DNA of 62,948 bases, counting the filler. It is 14 parts of 14 records of this genome, joined end to end, with 100 filler letters (N's around TTAATTAATTAA, not from the genome) between each part and the next. Parts side by side here need not be neighbours in the genome. Positions count along the whole stretch, not along the records: positions 59,787 to 62,948 come from SRR15195285_7723; 13 more parts are not named here. The stretch is one strand, 5' to 3'. Position 1 is the stretch's first letter; the number at the start of each line of letters is the position of its first letter. The notes under the pieces were generated by a model. That model was not told the DNA's origin, did no database searches, and saw nothing but the letters and a program-made list of their open reading frames with translations. Positions 3,275 to 62,948 of the stretch are shown here, one piece after another. Both the position numbers and the translations under genes were made by a program.

Positions 3275-3374
3275 NNNNNNNNNNNNNNNNNNNNNNNNNN
3301 NNNNNNNNNNNNNNNNNNTTAATTAATTAANNNNNNNNNNNNNNNNNNNNNNNNNNNNNNNNNNNNNNNNNNNN
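3275..3374. other. Artificial contig linker (N44-TTAATTAATTAA-N44), first of 13
   Basis: The identical 100-nt spacer, with stops in all six frames, also occurs at 6493-6592, 10128-10227, 13361-13460, 19074-19173, 23815-23914, 33642-33741, 37033-37132, 41773-41872, 47777-47876, 51256-51355, 55864-55963 and 59687-59786. Confidence 0.99.
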
Positions 3375-3667: not shown

Positions 3668-5940
3668 ATGTCGTCGTGGAAGAATACAAGGGACCTGTAC
3701 AGCCCTGTGCACCGCACCATTAATGCGGCGCCCGCGGAGGCGGTGCGATTGTCAGCCTTTTGTCTTCTTCTTTGTTGCGTGTGCAGGCTGTGCGGCCGTC
3801 GCAATTGTACATCAATACACGGTGGTGCTCAGTGTAAATGTGTGGCTCTGTCGCCTGTTGACCACTCACCGCAGCGCAAAGAAAAGGTCGATGTGATGTG
3901 GGTGATGGTGATCGGTGTGGCCTTCATCGGGATCTTCACGTCGTGGTTCGGCACGCAGTCCTTTGCGGTCAAACTACTCAACACGGGTACGCAGGACGCA
4001 AGAAGAAAATCGCCGGAGTGCTCGCAGAAAAAACAAGCGCGCCTCTCGGCCGGCAGCCCACTCACGGCCAGCGTGTGTCCTTGTGTGTGCGCTGCAGGTG
4101 GGAAGCAGCTCGGCTCCTGGCTGATCGGCATCGTGTACGTCGTCTTCATCCTCTCCAACCAGGTCGCGCCGTCCATTGTCGGGCTAATCGGGGCCAAGTG
4201 GACGATGGTTGCTGGCTCCGTTGGGTATTTCCTCGTGGTGGCTGGCACGGCCAGTCAGAATGCTCACCTCACGCTGGTCGGCGGTGCGTGCGTGGGGTTC
4301 GGGGCCGGCTTGCTGTGGTCTGGCCAGGGTCGGATGGTCACAGACCTGTCGACTGATAGTACGCGCGGCTTCTGCTGGGGAATTTTCGACGCGCTGATGA
4401 TGGGCGGAAGCGGGTACGCCCTGCACCGTTGCTGCTGCTGCGCGCGCCCCCGCCAAAACGATTCCATCGGCATGCCTGCGTTTCTCAATTCGTTCGTCAA
4501 CAGGCTGGTTGGCAACGCGATTACGATCAACTTTGCCCCAAGCTCCAAAATGCCGGATGCAAGCAGCAGCTCATCAGGCAGCGCGGGCGCCAGCGACCAC
4601 GAGTTCGACGAGGAAGTGCGCAAGTACTTCACAATCCTGTGCATCCCGGTCTCCATCGCGATCATTGTCCTGATGTGCATCCCCAACCTCCCCAAGCCAA
4701 CTGAGCAGCTCTCCGTCAGCGGTCGCATGCAGAAGGTGCGGAAACATGCTGCACGCGCAATCTGGGTCTTGCTACCCAGGTGTCTGGTGGTAGCGCCTCG
4801 CGCCTGATCAGCCTTGACGGCGTGCGGCACTGCTGCAGACCTGGGAGGTCGCGACAACGCGAGAGATGCTGATTATGGCCCCGTATTGTTTCCACATCGG
4901 CATCGCCATCGGCTTTACAATCTGTGAGAGCAAATGGGTAGCTGTTCGGAAGTCATGGATTGATCAGCAATTTGATTGTACGTTCGTTGACTCGATCCTG
5001 CGCTGTCTTCGATCAACTGCAGACATGAACACAATCATTCACGACAACAAGGCACTGGGGGTGATTGGCCTGTACAACTGCATCGGTGGATTTCTCGCGC
5101 TACCGATAGGCCGTGTCTCAGACACAGTACGTACATACTAGCATCTGCGGTCTCAACTGCAATTTCGCGTGACCTGCGCATGCGCCAACAGGTGGGGCGT
5201 CGTCCTGTTGCTCTGTTTGCCATGGCGATCGATCTCGTCGCGTACTTCTGCGCCAACATGGCCGCGCAAACGGAGCACCAGCCACACTGGCATGGTGATC
5301 TGGCCAGCTCTTTTGCACCCTCCGTGTGTGGATACGCATGCCTGGCAGGCCTTCTAGATGGTGAGATTCCGTCACAAAATCTGAACTATAATGGAGCTAG
5401 CAGCATGCGATCGACAATGCCTAGTGCTGTGGCTGCTGCTCTTTGAGTGGTGTGTTCACGCGCACCGTTGCTGCTTGCACCTGCCTTCTCGTTAGGTGGT
5501 GCGCGGTCTTTGATCCAAGTGATTCAAGCTGCAACCATATCTACACTTTTCAGCACGAAGGACTCCGAAGCCGCGTTCGCCATGCAAGAGACATGGTTAT
5601 CTGTCTCGTCAATCCTCATCTGTTGTGTGCTTACGCAAGTTCTACCGACCGTTCATGTAGACATTTCCACGTAAGCATTAATGACGATCCCAGGGTGCCA
5701 CTGACGCATATGCCTGTGCTGCCATCTTACTGGATCGCATGTTGATATCGCAGGGCGCTGGAGAATTTCAAGATTGTGATGGGAGTATGCGCTGCGAGTC
5801 TAATCTTCTCCACAGGTTGCTACTGCGTGGCCGAACCCTCGCCGATGATGTGCCTTGGAGACAGCAGCGGCAAGAGCAATCCTCCCATCGCAGGCTGGCG
5901 CAAGGCACGCAAAAGCTATAGCGAGGTCCTCGTCCAGTAG
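3668..5940 (+). CDS. UNC-93-like MFS membrane transporter, multi-exon
   Basis: Spliced hydrophobic helices with UNC-93 hallmarks (APSIVGLIGAKWTMVAGSVGY, GACVGFGAGLLWSGQG, GRVSDTVGRRPV, SEAAFA). About 8 GT-AG introns; stop at 5938-5940. The start exon is inferred. Confidence 0.8.
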
Positions 5941-6492: not shown

Positions 6493-6682
6493 NNNNNNNN
6501 NNNNNNNNNNNNNNNNNNNNNNNNNNNNNNNNNNNNTTAATTAATTAANNNNNNNNNNNNNNNNNNNNNNNNNNNNNNNNNNNNNNNNNNNNGGGATTGG
6601 AGACTTTCCCGCCCGTGAGCCGCCACTGTAATCGATCCTGTTCGCTTGGCAGTGTTCCTCCTAACTCTCCCTTGTAAACATC

Positions 6683-10127: not shown

Positions 10128-10227
10128 NNNNNNNNNNNNNNNNNNNNNNNNNNNNNNNNNNNNNNNNNNNNTTAATTAATTAANNNNNNNNNNNNNNNNN
10201 NNNNNNNNNNNNNNNNNNNNNNNNNNN

Positions 10228-55733: not shown

Positions 55734-56163
55734 CGAGCAGCCAGCCACGCCACGCCTGCACTGACCCGGGCGCGGTGCTACGCGCGCCGCGCATACGTAC
55801 GTCGCGCGCGCCGACGCGCGGCGATACCGCACCCATTGCCCAAGTCCGTGGGTTATGAACCCGNNNNNNNNNNNNNNNNNNNNNNNNNNNNNNNNNNNNN
55901 NNNNNNNTTAATTAATTAANNNNNNNNNNNNNNNNNNNNNNNNNNNNNNNNNNNNNNNNNNNNCGCAATATCAGTCCCGACGGTGGGCTGGGTATCAGTG
56001 AGTTTTCCGAATCCCAAGCGAATCCAACCCAGCCTGATGCCTGTGACGATGATGGCCAAAAGAGGTCGCCCCAATTTCGGCCTCATAGTGTTGAGTGGGG
56101 CGTGTACGCACTAGCAGGCGGCGGCTCAGCTCGCAGCGGCCAGGGAGAGTGAGGCTCGTGCGG

Positions 56164-59100
56164 ATGTCGATCACGGTGGACGACTGGGGCTCGGCTGTGG
56201 TTGGGCTGAAAGCGGAGGGGGCGGAGGGGGCTGAGGCTGGGTCTCGCACTGAGCATGAGGGGTCTCCTCCGCACCCGGCGCTGCTGCTGGAGCTGGTCGA
56301 GGAGAACAGCTCGACGATGGGGGTAGATGGCCTGCATGTCACATTCTACCAGATGGAGGCGCGGACGGGGCAGTCAGATTTCTTTGGCATCGAATTTGCA
56401 GTGCAGCCGGACGAGGCTGACCCCGACGCCACGCTCAAGGTCATCCGTCGCATCAAGAGAGACTCTACCGCTGCGAGTTTCGAGCCCCCAAACCAGATGC
56501 TCGCGCCAGGCATGGTCTTGAAAAGGGTCCAGGGCGAGGATGTTCAGGCCGAAGATCTGGCGACCACCTTGGGACGCATCGAGATGGCGCCGTTGCCCAT
56601 TGAGCTCGTGTTTGCCTCTGGTGTAGACGGATCGATGCCGCATGTCGTCGCGGTCGAGACGCCGCGCGACGCGTACGGCTTTCCGTTCGCCGTCGGGCGT
56701 GGCACTGGATCTGGGTACTTCCACACGTCACCGCGGACCCACCGGCGCATCGATGCCGAAGTACAGTCGAAGTCTGTATCACGGAAAGCGCGAAAACGAG
56801 TCGAAACACAGGAGAAGAAGTGGCAACGATGGCTGGAGCAGCCGCACCGCACCGATGCAATTAAAATTGCAAAGCTGGGCGTGCCTGAGCTGATGCGCCG
56901 TGATGTGTGGCCCAAACTTGCGGGGCTGGAAGAGATGAAGGCCAAGTGTGGTGATGACGCCACGTTCGTCGCACTGCGCAAGGCCGGTGAAGACGGCGCA
57001 GTGCCGCAGTCACCAGCCCGAACCGAGCAGGCCGTACAATTTGACCTAGACCAGATTGAGAAAGACCTACTTCGAACCTTCCCATCGCACCGACTCTTCG
57101 ATTCTAGCAGTGCGTCTTCTGGTGGGGTTGGTGTCGACGTTCTGCGTCAGATGCTCACTGCTTTCGTGCACCGGAATCCCACTACAGGCTACGTGCAATC
57201 AATGAATTACGTTGCAGCGACGATCATCATATGCCTGCTGCAGCGGGTGGACGACGCGAGCGTGAAAGACGAGGAAAGAGAGAATTCGTTCTGGCTATTT
57301 TCTGCTATAGTGGAGAACATTATGCCACAGTACTACGTCTCAGATCTCTTCGGTGTGCAGCGCGACATTCAGTGCATGGTCCTTTCACTGCGCAGATTGC
57401 TGCCGCAGCTATATGCTCACCTGGATCAACTGTGCATGCTGGAGCGCCTCAAAGTACAATTTTTCACTCCGTGGCTAATGAAACTCTTTGTCAATGCATT
57501 GCCGGTCTCGACAGTGCTCAGAGTGTGGGATCTAATGCTGGCAGAGCTGTTTGCAGGCGGCGAGCCGACCGAGCTGCTTGTGCGGGTCGGCCTGGCGGCA
57601 CTGGCTGAACACGAAGATGTACTTCTTAAAGTGCAAGACTCCGAAGTGTTCGCAGAGGAGCTGCACAGAGTATGCGCACAAACGACTGACGTGGACGCTT
57701 TGCTCAGCAGAGTTTGCTCGCGGCGCTGGGTGCGGATAGTGACAGAGGAGCAGGAGTCCGCGGTTCAGGAACTAAGGCCAACACGTCCACCTGAGCCAGA
57801 GCCGGAGCCCGAGCCGGCGCCGGAGCCGGAGCCTGAGCTCATCCTACAGCCAGATGCTAAAATAGAGCCTGCTACTAGAACAGCTGGTACTCTGGCTCGT
57901 ACAGCGTCTCTGCCGTTGTCACGCACACGATCTGCAGACAAACAGACCAAGCAGGTCCTCACCGCGATGCCGCCCGCATCTGCTTCAGCTTGCCACTATT
58001 ACATTGTGGTGTGCAAACGTGCGAACGTGCGCGAAAAGAAGTCGAAGGGGTCCGACTCTTGCGGTGTTCTGCAGGAGGGTACGGTGGTGGCTGCGCGACG
58101 CGAGGTGGAGAATATGGCAGGTCGGCTACGCATTCAATTTGAGTACAAAGGTGACGATGGTGCTGTGAAGCTTGGTTGGGTGAGCGTGATATCAAAAGCT
58201 GGTCGAGTGCTGCTCCGGCGATGTTCTTCTTGGGAAGCCTCCCCAGCAACGCGGAATAACCTGTTGCTCGATCGGACAACGTCCCCGATGATCTGCAGTT
58301 TTTGGTGCTGCGACCGGGTTGAGGTGTTTTCGAGCCCTGCGCTCAAGGAAAGCATTGCGTGCCTTGAGGCTGGGGTGATAATCGATGGCTTGGAACGTAG
58401 GCCGAAGCAGAAAGCGCCACGTCTCAACTTCTCTGCGCTTCTTCCTGCGAACAAAGCTTTAGGGAGCGCTCCTGGGAGCCAGGTCGCGGCACGTGCCCAT
58501 GTAGTGCGCTTCGAGCTGCCAGATCTGCGGATGGGCTGGGTGTGCACTCACGACCAGTTGACCGGTCAGCTGCAGCTTCTCGATACCTTCATGCGAGCCG
58601 AAAGCTTCCAGACGGAAGGGCATGAATCCGACGCACAATGCACCCAAATGGAGGACGGTGTACCTGTACCCCCATCACTGCAGGAGCAGCAACATCGTTG
58701 CGATATGGAGCTGGCCGAAATCGCACGACTGAAGAAGGAGTACGATATTGCGATGCGTGCTGATGAGTCGCCAGTGATTCGGTCTGACTTAGACGAGCAG
58801 CTTGCAGCGTGGAAACAGGCCAAGATGCGTGTTGATAGTGAGCTTATCAAGCAGGACCCGCAAGTGGTACAGGCTAAGGCACAGCAGACAGCGGCGGCGC
58901 CTGAACCTGCAGTGGTCGCAGAAGCACTAGAGTTGCCTCCGTTGCCGTTGCCAAGTGCAAACAGCACAGGTAGCAGCAGCGCGACTGACACCTCTACCCC
59001 ACGTCAGTTGCCCCAGCGCACACTATCATTTGGCGACTGGGTGTACAACACGCCCAGAGCAGAGGAGGCAGAACCGCCCTTCGACCAGTGGGGGCGCCCA

Positions 59101-59259
59101 CGAGGGCACATTGACTACGGTGTTGACCCATCTCAGCTGCTGATCGAGAACAGTGATGGCGACAGCTCAGAGGATGACGTGAGCACTGGATCTGATGATG
59201 ATTACGATTCCGACGAGGATGACGAGGAGGACCAGGACGCAGATCATCGGGCAGAATGA
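56164..59259 (+). CDS. TBC (Rab-GAP) protein with N-terminal PDZ-like and two SH3b-like domains
   Basis: FGIEF...LAPGMVLKRVQGEDV...PIELVF (PDZ); QIEKDLLRTFP, GYVQSMNYVA and LRVWD (TBC); VRE...LQEGTVV...GWVS (SH3b-like); a PEPEPE tract and an acidic tail. Confidence 0.88.
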   Translation: MSITVDDWGSAVVGLKAEGAEGAEAGSRTEHEGSPPHPALLLELVEENSSTMGVDGLHVTFYQMEARTGQSDFFGIEFAVQPDEADPDATLKVIRRIKRDSTAASFEPPNQMLAPGMVLKRVQGEDVQAEDLATTLGRIEMAPLPIELVFASGVDGSMPHVVAVETPRDAYGFPFAVGRGTGSGYFHTSPRTHRRIDAEVQSKSVSRKARKRVETQEKKWQRWLEQPHRTDAIKIAKLGVPELMRRDVWPKLAGLEEMKAKCGDDATFVALRKAGEDGAVPQSPARTEQAVQFDLDQIEKDLLRTFPSHRLFDSSSASSGGVGVDVLRQMLTAFVHRNPTTGYVQSMNYVAATIIICLLQRVDDASVKDEERENSFWLFSAIVENIMPQYYVSDLFGVQRDIQCMVLSLRRLLPQLYAHLDQLCMLERLKVQFFTPWLMKLFVNALPVSTVLRVWDLMLAELFAGGEPTELLVRVGLAALAEHEDVLLKVQDSEVFAEELHRVCAQTTDVDALLSRVCSRRWVRIVTEEQESAVQELRPTRPPEPEPEPEPAPEPEPELILQPDAKIEPATRTAGTLARTASLPLSRTRSADKQTKQVLTAMPPASASACHYYIVVCKRANVREKKSKGSDSCGVLQEGTVVAARREVENMAGRLRIQFEYKGDDGAVKLGWVSVISKAGRVLLRRCSSWEASPATRNNLLLDRTTSPMICSFWCCDRVEVFSSPALKESIACLEAGVIIDGLERRPKQKAPRLNFSALLPANKALGSAPGSQVAARAHVVRFELPDLRMGWVCTHDQLTGQLQLLDTFMRAESFQTEGHESDAQCTQMEDGVPVPPSLQEQQHRCDMELAEIARLKKEYDIAMRADESPVIRSDLDEQLAAWKQAKMRVDSELIKQDPQVVQAKAQQTAAAPEPAVVAEALELPPLPLPSANSTGSSSATDTSTPRQLPQRTLSFGDWVYNTPRAEEAEPPFDQWGRPRGHIDYGVDPSQLLIENSDGDSSEDDVSTGSDDDYDSDEDDEEDQDADHRAE

Positions 59260-59686: not shown

Positions 59687-59786
59687 NNNNNNNNNNNNNN
59701 NNNNNNNNNNNNNNNNNNNNNNNNNNNNNNTTAATTAATTAANNNNNNNNNNNNNNNNNNNNNNNNNNNNNNNNNNNNNNNNNNNN

Positions 59787-62633
59787 TGCAGATGGCCTGG
59801 AATGTACGGCTTGTCCCGCTGGAAAGCAGCCAGACAATAGCAAGGAGAGGTGTGATGGTTGCCACGACTCTGGTCCTAATGCCTATTCACCCGACGGTAT
59901 TGAGTGCAAAGCCTGCCCCACAAGACACACCCCTAGCTACGACCGAACTCGCTGCTTTTGCCAAACCAACACGTACAGTGCAATTGCTTTGGGCACTATT
60001 CGCTGCAGAGGCGAATCGTTCAGGTATACTGGCATAGACGAGGACGAATGTGCTGTATGTCCGCCCTGCATGGATTGCACCAAATCGGGGGAAACAAAGC
60101 TGAAGAGTGGATGGACTTTCTTCGGAGCGCAGGGTGATGCATACCACTGCCCAGGGGCAGACACGTTCGAAGCCTGCCCACCTCTTTTGCTCAACAGCTC
60201 GACCACCTTGGATGAGAGCACGTGCGCCAAAGGGTACGACGGCCCGTTGTGTGGAAACTGCGACGTGGACTGGAACCATTTGAAAACTGGGAATGAGTGC
60301 AGCGCTTGCAGCGATGGTGTTATCAATGTCCCTCTCATGTTCGTCCTGTTTTTAGCAAGCATCATCATGGCGATAGCAACGGTTAGCGGCGGTCTCAGTA
60401 TTTTATCAGACAATGGTGTCCTCACCGATCTTCGGATCATCATTGGCTTTTGTAAGTTGCTCAACGTCATCCGCGTCTCTCGTTGCCAACTGCGATTTTG
60501 AAGTCAATTACTGACCAGGCTTTCTGCATCATCACCCACAGATCAAATTTTGGGCCAAGCTGGTACAGTCCTCGATTTGAACTTTACCTACCCGATTTCA
60601 AATCTCATTAGCCTGGTCAAGCTGCTGTTCCTAGATGTTCGAAACATCATTCGCCTAGACTGCTTTGAAATGGGCGGATTTGGTGGAAAGCTCGCGACAA
60701 ATCTAGTCGTTGTGCCCGCCATAATTGGCGGCATATGCCTCTTAGTTTACATGCAGCAGCGACGCACACTGACAGCACTTATAGCAGCAGGTGCATCCGA
60801 TGAATCTGGACTCCATGTCTTGCAAGTAGAACTGAAGCACCGGCTAATGATTGGCATATTCTTAGTCTGTAAGCGACCACTCCGTGCTTTTCAATTTTCA
60901 TGCCTATGGTTTATCCGTACTAATCCAGCGCTATGGCGTAGATCCCACCATTTGCACGACTCTCTTCCGGGTTCCGCAGTGCAAAGACTACGGAGATTTC
61001 TCTTTTCATGAAGACGATTACCGGATCGACTGCTCGACGACATATTTCAAGCTAGTGTCGGCATTTGCTATATGCACGATTATACTGATCCCATTCGGAG
61101 TGCCAGCTTTGTTCATGTACTTCATGCTGCGAGCCAAACAGAGGCTTGGTGGCACTGTGAACGAGACGCAGCTAGGCGGAGCAAAGCTCGTGGCAGACGA
61201 TGTAGACGACGAATCTGATGTGTACGGCTTCCTAATTGCCGACTGTAAGTTACTCCACATCGACCGCATCTCTCGTTGCAAATCGCAATCTTGACATCGA
61301 TAATCTGACACGGCTTACGCTGCATCATCACAGATCGACCAGATTCGTGGTACCATGAGATTGTGGTCTACTCAAGAAAGCTCATGCTCGGTGGCGTTTC
61401 CATCATCATGGGAAGAGGCACGATGGCCCAAACATGTAAGCCACTCCTGCTCGGTCTGTCTGTCGACCATTTGTCCTAATAATATGACCCATCAGGCACG
61501 GTTGGTGTGCACAGATTTTATAATTTGCGTAGAGGCGTGCTACCTGATGCATCACATGAGAACATTTCCATTCATCAGCTACAAACACAACGTTATCGAA
61601 GGGATTGGTCACGTGGCGTTGATGCTACTGTACACGGTCACGCTGATCATGCGCGTTGACAACCCAGAATATTGGGGCGCTGAGTGGTTCCCGAAGACCG
61701 GTGAGAGCATTTCAACGGTGGAATTCCACAACTGCCACACATGGTGCTCACCTCAGTTAGGAAATTTTGCGCTAAACGCTGGTGCCTTATTTGCTAGGAT
61801 ATTCGTGGTTTATCGTCTTCATGTTCGCTGTTCTGCTGCCATTTCCCACGATCTGGTATCAGTACAAGCAACGTAAGGTGACGCGTAATCAGCAAGACGA
61901 AAAAGAATTCGGTGAGACGAACAACCCGCTCGCCGATGACTTGGGTACTGCCTCTCCACCGCACGAGACCAACGTGGTGAAGATGGCTGCGCGTGCGAAT
62001 CAAGCCAAGATGCAGCGCGAAGCGCAGAAGGCAGAGGCGGATAATCGAAAACTACGCGCTCAAGTGGAACTGCTACAAAATAAGTTGCGTGCGGCAGTTG
62101 CTTCCACGCCAACTCCAGCCTTCTCTGAAGGTCTATTTGATGGCCACAACGACTCCGAGGACCCCACACCAAGCATACCGACACAGGAATTGATTGTGAA
62201 GAAGCTAGTAGAGGATGAAATGCTGAGCGACGAGACTCGAGAATCTGCAAAGAAAGCTCTCGATGTGCTCGCAACATCAACGATTCAGTCTCTTGAGGCT
62301 CAATTCGTGACGCGAACGTCACTGGCCCAACAAGACCTCGAGATCGCCAAGCAGAGGCAAGCGATCGTGGCGGAGAAACGCTCGGAGGTCGAAGCCTCTG
62401 CCACAAAGGAGATGACAGAATGGCTCGCACACCATCGCTTGCTACGGTTCGTGGACGTGATAGCTAGGGTCGCCGGGCCAGATTCTTCCCCGGGGGACCT
62501 GCAGTACCTCACCGAAAGCGACGTCCAAGAGATCGGTAGCGAAATGACTAACATTGAGAAGCGTCGAATGCAAGAGGGGTTGCGAGCCCTTGCGCCGACC
62601 CTACAACCACAGCCGGAGCCACAGGCTGAGTAA
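59787..62633 (+). CDS. Cys-rich ectodomain, multi-pass TM region, coiled coil and SAM domain; 5' partial
   Basis: Removing introns 60452-60541, 60869-60941, 61245-61333, 61436-61514 and 61701-61797 restores a continuous frame (IIGFYQIL, FLVYPTIC, IADYRPDSWYHEIVVYSRK). C-terminal EWLAHHRL...DLQYLTESDVQEIG...IEKRR is SAM-like. Confidence 0.85.
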
Positions 62634-62794
62634 CCGATCACTCCTCATATCGGCCGTGAACTTTCTACACAATTGTAGTTGTTGGGATCGTCCGTAGCAC
62701 TGACGCAAAGCAACGAACAAAGCAACGGAATGCTGATGTGAAAATGGTTCGAATAAATCACTTGTGTATCTATTTTCCCGACCCAAAGATATAC

Positions 62795-62948
62795 ATGGAA
62801 GAGTTTACCTTGGGCGAGTTAGGTGTGTTTCTGGGAGTGGTTGGCGGTATTATGAACAGCGTGCTCCTGATCTTTCAGAAGAGTAAGTGTGCAAACATGA
62901 CCCATTACATGACCCATTTGAAAGGCGCGAGAACGTTCTACGGCTCCA
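62795..62948 (+). CDS. Small single-TM ORF (MEEFTLGELGVFLGVVGGIMNSVLLIFQKSKC...), runs off the window
   Basis: ATG in an AT-rich context, a hydrophobic helix, then KSKC. Not in the supplied ORF track. Confidence 0.35.
   Translation, partial: MEEFTLGELGVFLGVVGGIMNSVLLIFQKSKCANMTHYMTHLKGARTFYGS

Follow-up and report, generated by a model that had tools for sequence, protein, structure and literature searches.

The origin of new spliceosomal introns is a long-standing question. The well-documented intron gains are transposon-derived introners, recognized by their target-site duplications (TSDs); for an RNA-based route through reverse splicing, direct evidence is, to our knowledge, scarce and a target signature is not known. 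Marine protists offer well-documented examples of introners that come from DNA transposons, as described in the available portions of two sources (PMC9860276; 10.1101/2020.10.14.339549). Closer to the present case are introns duplicated within a single gene. In the excerpts of the work on fungi, non-segmental intron duplicates in the same gene are attributed to transposition by reverse splicing within the same transcript (PMC3609843), and near-identical intron pairs within one gene are known from Oikopleura, as cited in the accessible part of PMC3879977. The subject here is a stretch of 62,948 nucleotides (nt), called the window, which consists of 14 artificially joined contigs, and in its last contig a gene for a cysteine-rich, multi-pass membrane protein. 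Four consecutive introns of this gene, I1 to I4, each interrupt a tyrosine codon between its T and its A, a split written T|AT (the bar marks the intron; T|AY includes T|AC).

The host is an uncultured marine protist, and the analysis drew on two gene families and about 79 kb of DNA, that is, the window and seven related loci (L001 to L007). The locus combines filled and empty sites that differ by one intron, a source-copy pair within one gene, and a T|AY motif enriched about 26-fold across paralogues. The preferred explanation is footprint-free, T|AY-selective propagation of introns, so far seen only within one gene, to which a probability of roughly 0.5 may be assigned.

Gene structure and splice junctions

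The plus strand at 59788-62633 carries the 3' part of the gene. Its homologues carry the precomputed families PF06011 and PF23091; a Pfam search of the membrane exons named no family. The exons and introns are listed below.

59787-62948: contig of the finding, the last of the 14 small contigs; the whole gene lies on this single contig.
59788..60451, plus strand: exon 1, its 5' end cut at the contig/linker boundary (59687-59786); an open frame collinear with homologues, encoding the cysteine-rich extracellular part and the first membrane segments, with a weak DUF7630 match, and ending with the T of split Tyr222.
60452..60541, plus strand: intron I1, 90 nt, phase 1, GGC TTT T|gtaagt..cacag|AT CAA, Tyr222.
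60542..60868, plus strand: exon 2, 327 nt, starting with AT and ending with T.
60869..60941, plus strand: intron I2, 73 nt, phase 1, GTC T|gtaagc..cgtag|AT CCC, Tyr331; ACTCC at intron position 11.
60942..61244, plus strand: exon 3, 303 nt.
61245..61333, plus strand: intron I3, 89 nt, phase 1, GAC T|gtaagt..cacag|AT CGA, Tyr432; ACTCC at intron position 8.
61334..61435, plus strand: exon 4, 102 nt.
61436..61514, plus strand: intron I4, 79 nt, phase 1, ACA T|gtaagc..cacag|AT TTT, Tyr466; ACTCC at intron position 8.
61515..61700, plus strand: exon 5, 186 nt.
61701..61797, plus strand: intron I5, 97 nt, phase 1, G|GA, GTGAGA..GCTAG.
61798..62633, plus strand: exon 6, the last, with a coiled-coil-like tail and the stop codon at 62631-62633.

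I1 to I4 are genuine U2-type spliceosomal introns. Minor, U12-type introns have a conserved RTATCCTT 5' splice site, and this identity is ruled out by donors that read GTAAGT or GTAAGC. I5, with its conventional G|G junction, provides an internal contrast to I1-I4 and is not present in L003.

Several lines of evidence establish the junctions. The spliced coding sequence comprises 806 codons with no internal stop, and its product is collinear with 19 homologues, with no insertion or deletion at any junction. Among the homologues that cover each site, the junction residue is tyrosine in 12 of 12 for I1, 16 of 16 for I2, 16 of 17 for I3 and 14 of 14 for I4; the interrupted tyrosine codons are old and conserved. 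Removal of I3 is seen in RNA, where contig record 5 of run X15 agrees with 61092-61244 at every letter and extends into ATCGACCAG, nine letters that follow 61244 and are identical to 61334-61342. I3 is the only one of the four junctions covered by RNA contigs; record 1 of run X14 maps within exon 2, at 60554-60761. DNA contigs of an independent marine metagenome run (X2, records 9 and 11) span I1 and I3 with 0-1 differences. An earlier interpretation of the window from its letters, the sequence-only reading, had described four consecutive introns that split TAT as T|AT in phase 1 behind GTAAG donors. The junctions as read, the collinear homologues and the RNA at I3 uphold this description, and the interval it gave, 60451-61516, begins at the T of the first split codon and ends with the AT of the last. 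The coding sequence offers 2417 possible sites and contains 10 TAT codons, and the probability of placing four of five introns at T|AT by chance is 1.5e-9.

Insertion geometry and the copied introns

All four introns have flanks of the form T|GT..AG|A, with no base common to the exon edge and the intron edge. One GT..AG unit is the whole difference between an empty and a filled site, and target bases are neither duplicated nor lost. At the I3 site, the empty form is GACTATCG in L002 and the filled form is GACT[89 nt]ATCG in this gene. The inserted unit is the intron itself. Since a T precedes and an A follows the GT..AG unit and the codon is restored, no TSD is possible, even of one base; a TSD at a restored codon would need an upstream exon ending in G or AG, or a downstream exon starting with G or GT. 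This in turn rules out a Tc1/mariner-like TA duplication as well as the mechanisms of transposon introners that recruit splice sites from their TSDs. Neither a stable fold nor inverted termini were found in the introns, with fold z-scores of -0.6 to +0.7.

I1 and I3 are copies of one sequence. They are 76% identical over 87 nt in an alignment that extends from GT to AG (E 1.4e-12 against the window; z 9.2 against shuffles). Their exon flanks match at 11/30 nt on the left and 6/30 on the right, which is not significant, and there is no likeness beyond about 15 nt; common to both are a T on the left edge, ATC on the right edge and a weak 9/15 match just upstream. Because these flanks are dissimilar, no segment of the gene was duplicated, and a segmental duplication of exon and intron together is excluded as the origin of the pair. 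The two introns display the hallmarks of a non-segmental, same-gene intron duplication, namely similar introns with unrelated flanks in one gene. Each copy is complete and precisely spliced, as seen from the GT-to-AG homology, the I3 junction in RNA and the collinear product.

A short 5' signature is found in three of the four introns. The pattern GT[AG]AG[CT]N0-4ACTCC has three occurrences on both strands of 63 kb, and these are I2, I3 and I4; I1 has GCTCA where I3 has ACTCC. In a comparison of 21 introns, ACTCC near the 5' end was present in 4/5 T|AT introns versus 0/16 others. The sequence-only reading had pointed to a common start of I2 and I4 (GTAAGC..CCACTCC.TGCT), which is real but amounts to a 12-nt patch with an E value of 1.2, and whole-length homology, for I2-I4 and for I4 versus I1/I3, is not significant. 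I2 and I4 may belong, as older members, to the same small intron lineage as I1 and I3. The introner family supposed by the same reading is not shown by the roughly 79 kb analyzed, in which only two clear copies were found, both of them within the membrane-protein gene.

Intron positions in related loci

The seven loci came from a protein-guided scan of metagenome contigs, and L005 and L006 are the same gene (L005/6). Their codons compare with those of the present gene as follows.

Tyr222 (site of I1): T|AT intron in this gene; intact TAC in L001, L003 and L004; intact TAC with a G|GT intron 6 nt upstream in L005/6 and L007; L002 uncovered.
GGF[Y]GK: Gly and no intron in this gene; T|AC intron in L002; intact in L001 and L003; intact TAT in L004, L005/6 and L007.
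Tyr331 (site of I2): T|AT intron in this gene; T|AC intron in L004; intact TAT in L001 and L003; TTG|GTA intron 4 nt upstream in L002; CCT|ACT intron 5 nt downstream in L005/6 and L007.
Tyr432 (site of I3): T|AT intron in this gene; intact TAT in L002 (GAC TAT CGC); intact TAC in L004, L005/6 and L007; open frame continuous in L001 and L003, the codon itself not read.
Tyr466 (site of I4): T|AT intron in this gene; T|AC intron in L002, L003 and L005; intact TAC in L001; L004 and L007 uncovered.

L001 is intronless throughout, and the uninterrupted open reading frames (ORFs) P0037 and P0041 are without introns at Tyr432, Tyr466 and Gly528. In a tree built from 132 columns, L002, L004, L005, L007, P0037 and P0041 form one well-supported clade (100/99), with L003 and L001 outside it. 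Placed on this tree, I1, I3 and the GGF[Y]GK intron of L002 are lineage-specific gains, in the last case because the sisters L004, L005/6 and L007 have an intact TAT. The split of Tyr331 in both this gene and L004 suggests parallel hits, since the clade-mates of L004 (L002, L005-7) and the outside L003 are without that split; this would be simpler than one gain followed by several losses. Of the four positions, those of I1 and I3 are private to this gene, but that of I4 is occupied in three diverged loci and that of I2 in one, as T|AC.

The G|GT intron that L005-7 carry 6 nt upstream was considered as the ancestor of I1 and rejected, as the two have no significant similarity. Around Tyr331, introns occupy three positions within 9 nt (L002 383-487, L004 955-1043, L005 585-679, L007 873-952 and window 60869-60941). 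The crowding there and at Tyr222, where two positions lie 6 nt from each other, resembles a regional hot spot of intron gain, or intron sliding. The L002 intron at 383-487 is 105 nt long, in frame and stop-free, and tblastn reads through it as a 35-residue insertion. L003 has at 1492-1724 a probable 6-nt micro-exon, TGGGAT (Trp-Asp), between two introns, of which the second starts with GTAAGTACTCC and has a phase-0 T|AT junction. At about 800-840, within a membrane segment, the frame of L004 is shifted by one base against all relatives, through an assembly error or as the mark of a pseudogene. Three metagenome proteins from different contigs (P0047, P0049 and P0052) end in the same unrelated tail, ..SLIHI, which is probably a translated adaptor or linker at contig ends. 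A protein scan of viral_contigs found no relative.

Enrichment of T|AY junctions

The region compared within the family contains 15 distinct intron positions, of which seven are T|AY, five G|G and three other. The coding background of T|AY, taken from the long open frames of the window, is 535 of 29,244 sites (1.8%), divided by phase into 166/255/114. Against this background, the 7/15 at the family positions constitute an enrichment of approximately 26-fold (p = 3.9e-9), and the excess that the sequence-only reading anticipated is present. Five of the seven junctions are in phase 1 and two in phase 0, which fits the motif frequencies (p = 0.19). Since the phases follow the frequencies of the motif, the target is a nucleotide motif from which the tyrosine codons and phase 1 follow, and codon-aware, tyrosine-specific targeting becomes unnecessary. 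The four split codons of this gene are all TAT, though TAC is commoner (p ~0.01-0.02). Of the earlier proposal that insertion selects TA or TAT, the selectivity for T|AY stands, supported by the enrichment and the empty TAY codons of relatives, but the tyrosine codon as such is not the target.

A T|AC junction had also been noted near 4924, in an unrelated gene on another contig.

4924..5022, plus strand: probable intron of an UNC-93-like gene, 99 nt, phase 1, ATC T|gtgaga..ctgcag|AC ATG.

The exon upstream has a Pfam match to UNC-93. A family hidden Markov model (HMM), built from all listed homologues of 380-520 amino acids (P0067 and later), gives 172.5 bits to the spliced form versus 167.4 to the retained form, and the junction tyrosine aligns with the conserved ..GVY.. 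motif. The junction is probable, with the HMM favoring splicing. The intron is in frame and stop-free, such that retention would add 33 residues and not truncate the protein.

Proposed mechanism and alternatives

Under the preferred explanation, a lineage of introns would colonize additional T|AT sites of the gene in which it resides. An excised intron would reverse-splice into a transcript of the same gene, and the intron-bearing transcript would then be reverse-transcribed and recombined into the locus. As enzymology, this reverse-splicing route is the most likely one, although it is advanced tentatively and at well under even odds. The chances are about even that introns of this class are recurrent in the protist lineage, inserted precisely behind the T of an existing TAY, which in coding sequence is mostly a tyrosine codon and hence in phase 1. 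A more far-reaching version is possible but doubtful. In it, the lineage would possess a footprint-free process with target T^AY that has struck repeatedly, with probable independent hits on one conserved tyrosine codon across paralogues, and that, in this gene, has propagated a single intron lineage to as many as four sites. If true, it would represent a novel, site-specific class of intron gain, brought about for instance by guided reverse splicing or by an unknown insertion enzyme that leaves no TSD, and intron gain would acquire a readable target signature. Should the enrichment hold genome-wide, it would provide a testable signature that separates one class of gained introns, explain part of the phase-1 bias by motif frequencies and narrow down the mechanism.

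A number of observations weigh against the preferred explanation. Only two copies are unambiguous, both within one gene; neither BLAST nor an nhmmer profile found a third copy of I1/I3 in the window and L001-L007. Contigs of one marine metagenome run yielded no extra intron copy at a likeness of at least 80%, a threshold that misses copies as diverged as I1 and I3. An exact-pattern scan for more copies gave 0 matches in viral_contigs; in genome_contigs it gave 2, both in prokaryotic metagenome-assembled genomes (L008 and L009) and taken as chance, with about 1 expected on a rough estimate. The tie of I2 and I4 to the lineage is a 5-nt motif. The position of I4 may simply be that of an old intron, since it recurs in three diverged loci including the outgroup L003. 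In the tree, which has 132 columns only, the branch of this gene is long and belongs to a polytomy with COSAG04 paralogues. Intron calls in L001-L007 are spliced alignments without RNA support, and the least certain among them are the L003 micro-exon and the q214 intron. Ordinary G|G junctions account for five of the 15 family positions, which means that introns here also arise by routes other than T|AY. With respect to the proposed route, we know of no preference of reverse splicing for T|A, and the neighboring introns were kept, whereas a long tract of cDNA recombination would tend to remove them.

The main rival is copying at the level of DNA, which is rather unlikely overall. A break or a stalled replication end at a TAT could be repaired by template switching to a nearby intron at microhomology formed by a left-hand T and a right-hand ATC, or a break at T^A could capture a DNA fragment derived from an intron; the same low estimate applies to the two variants jointly. 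Only copies equal to a complete intron would survive selection in a conserved coding region. The shared T|ATC edges of I1 and I3 with their weak 9/15 upstream match fit such an event, as do the absence of a TSD and the location of source and copy, 793 nt apart in the same gene and the same orientation. Retention of I2 and I4 is also more readily reconciled with a short patch of DNA than with a long tract of cDNA. However, selection aside, nothing would cause such a copy to match GT..AG to the base, a left microhomology of one nucleotide is minimal, and the T|AY junctions of other loci, which hold unrelated introns, are left unexplained by copying itself.

It is decidedly improbable that these are ordinary old introns, with T|AY reflecting a lineage-specific constraint of exon context or splicing, or ancient history, and with I1/I3 as a one-off duplication. 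This account draws on the I4 position common to L002, L003 and L005 and the I2 position common to L004, on the lack of residual similarity among introns at common positions, which suggests old age, and on the multi-copy family not being found in the window and L001-L007. It is opposed by the private T|AY sites (Tyr222, Tyr432 and, in L002, GGF[Y]GK), which are intact TAY in relatives, by a 26-fold enrichment that is hard to obtain through retention alone, and by the conventional G|G introns that coexist in the same genes. A T at exon position -1 is moreover not favored by the usual pairing with U1.

The sequence-only reading itself favored a non-autonomous, TA-targeting cut-and-paste transposon of the Tc1/mariner kind that had become an introner family, which is now very improbable. 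All four sites have TA as the junction dinucleotide, and this and the documented introners of marine protists count in its favor. The analogy fails on the single TA, which is split and not duplicated (T[GT..AG]A) at each of the four sites, none of which has an exon edge of the kind that a TSD would require. Terminal inverted repeats, a stable fold and other copies in the searched sequence are likewise lacking, and the collinear homologues exclude a tyrosine created by the insertion. Finally, that the introns are mis-called, or the gene a pseudogene or assembly chimera, is scarcely credible: the window strings together 14 small contigs and RNA supports 1/4 junctions only, but the gene lies entirely on one contig, independent metagenome DNA contigs cover I1 and I3 with 0-1 differences, and the spliced product is collinear with 19 homologues. 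The basis of the T|AY choice is explained by none of these readings.

The source stretch and its other genes

In the window, an artificial linker separates each contig from the next, and any inference across a linker is invalid.

3275-3374, 6493-6592, 10128-10227 and ten more: artificial linkers, N44-TTAATTAATTAA-N44, between contigs.

A 39-copy repeat, D1, reported by a repeat finder is this linker and not a genomic repeat. The host is a eukaryote whose nearest proteins are EukProt records labelled COSAG02 and COSAG04 together with marine metagenome proteins, and parts of the stretch are present in marine metagenome and metatranscriptome runs. Intron density among the genes is very uneven. 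A single open frame of 2927 codons at 23916-32696 is rich in EGF-like repeats (DVDEC..PC.N; families D2-D6), and several further open frames of 1000-1400 codons are also intronless. Another intronless gene, of 1054 codons at 56095-59259, encodes a TBC/RabGAP domain, with green-algal and plant proteins as its nearest relatives after a COSAG02 record. Two catalogues of introns in the window were discarded as unreliable and entered no count; open-frame rules gave 152 candidates with many alternatives, and added codon-usage scoring gave 8 candidates and missed three known introns.

Comparison with known systems

Tc1/mariner transposons target TA and are defined by the TA duplication and terminal inverted repeats. 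I1-I4 are alike in having TA at the insertion point and differ in the absence of both the duplication and the repeats. Helitrons insert between A and T, have 5' TC and 3' CTRR ends and carry a sub-terminal hairpin. Insertion of this type is ruled out here, as the introns lie between T and A, end in GTAAG../..CACAG (on the other strand CTGTG../..CTTAC) and form no stable hairpin.

The introners of Micromonas, Aureococcus, Symbiodinium and Polarella, as presented in the available portions of PMC9860276 and 10.1101/2020.10.14.339549, resemble the present introns in their marine protist hosts, in their short length and in a phase bias that arises from the nucleotides of the insertion site. According to the same portions, these introners recruit one or both splice sites from a TSD of 3-9 nt (GHNN, AGGH). 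Here, in contrast, a TSD is impossible and the unit brings both of its splice sites along; with flanks of T|GT..AG|A and no inverted termini, the DNA-transposon-derived type of introner is ruled out. The introner-like elements (ILEs) of ascomycetes and the 'direct insertion' introners of Alternaria are closer, since in the excerpts of PMC9860276 their unit also carries both splice sites, lacks a TSD and terminal inverted repeats, and is removed precisely. Those elements form families with tens to hundreds of near-identical copies in unrelated genes, whereas two clear copies and a T|AY target are found here. Fungal ILEs are also described, in the excerpts of PMC3609843, as longer and with stable folds, unlike the present introns with their fold z-scores near zero (-0.6 to +0.7).

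Targeting of a tyrosine codon or of a TA dinucleotide was not found in the intron-gain literature searched, with the per-family site tables of PMC9860276 and PMC12130899 outside that search. Nor does a T|AY-type site signature appear in the excerpted literature on same-gene duplication (PMC3609843; PMC3879977), and the combination of a T|AY motif, footprint-free insertion and repeated occurrence among paralogues, including one codon probably hit twice, was not found in print in these searches. Taken by itself, the I1/I3 pair is of a known kind, a same-gene intron duplication. As in the fungal and Oikopleura cases, so far as the available parts of those sources describe them, similar introns of ordinary length and without a special fold occupy different positions, and the flanks are not duplicated. 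The pair departs from those cases, as described there, in being older (76% identity), in having identical T|ATC junctions within conserved tyrosine codons, and in belonging to a wider excess of T|AY junctions across paralogues.

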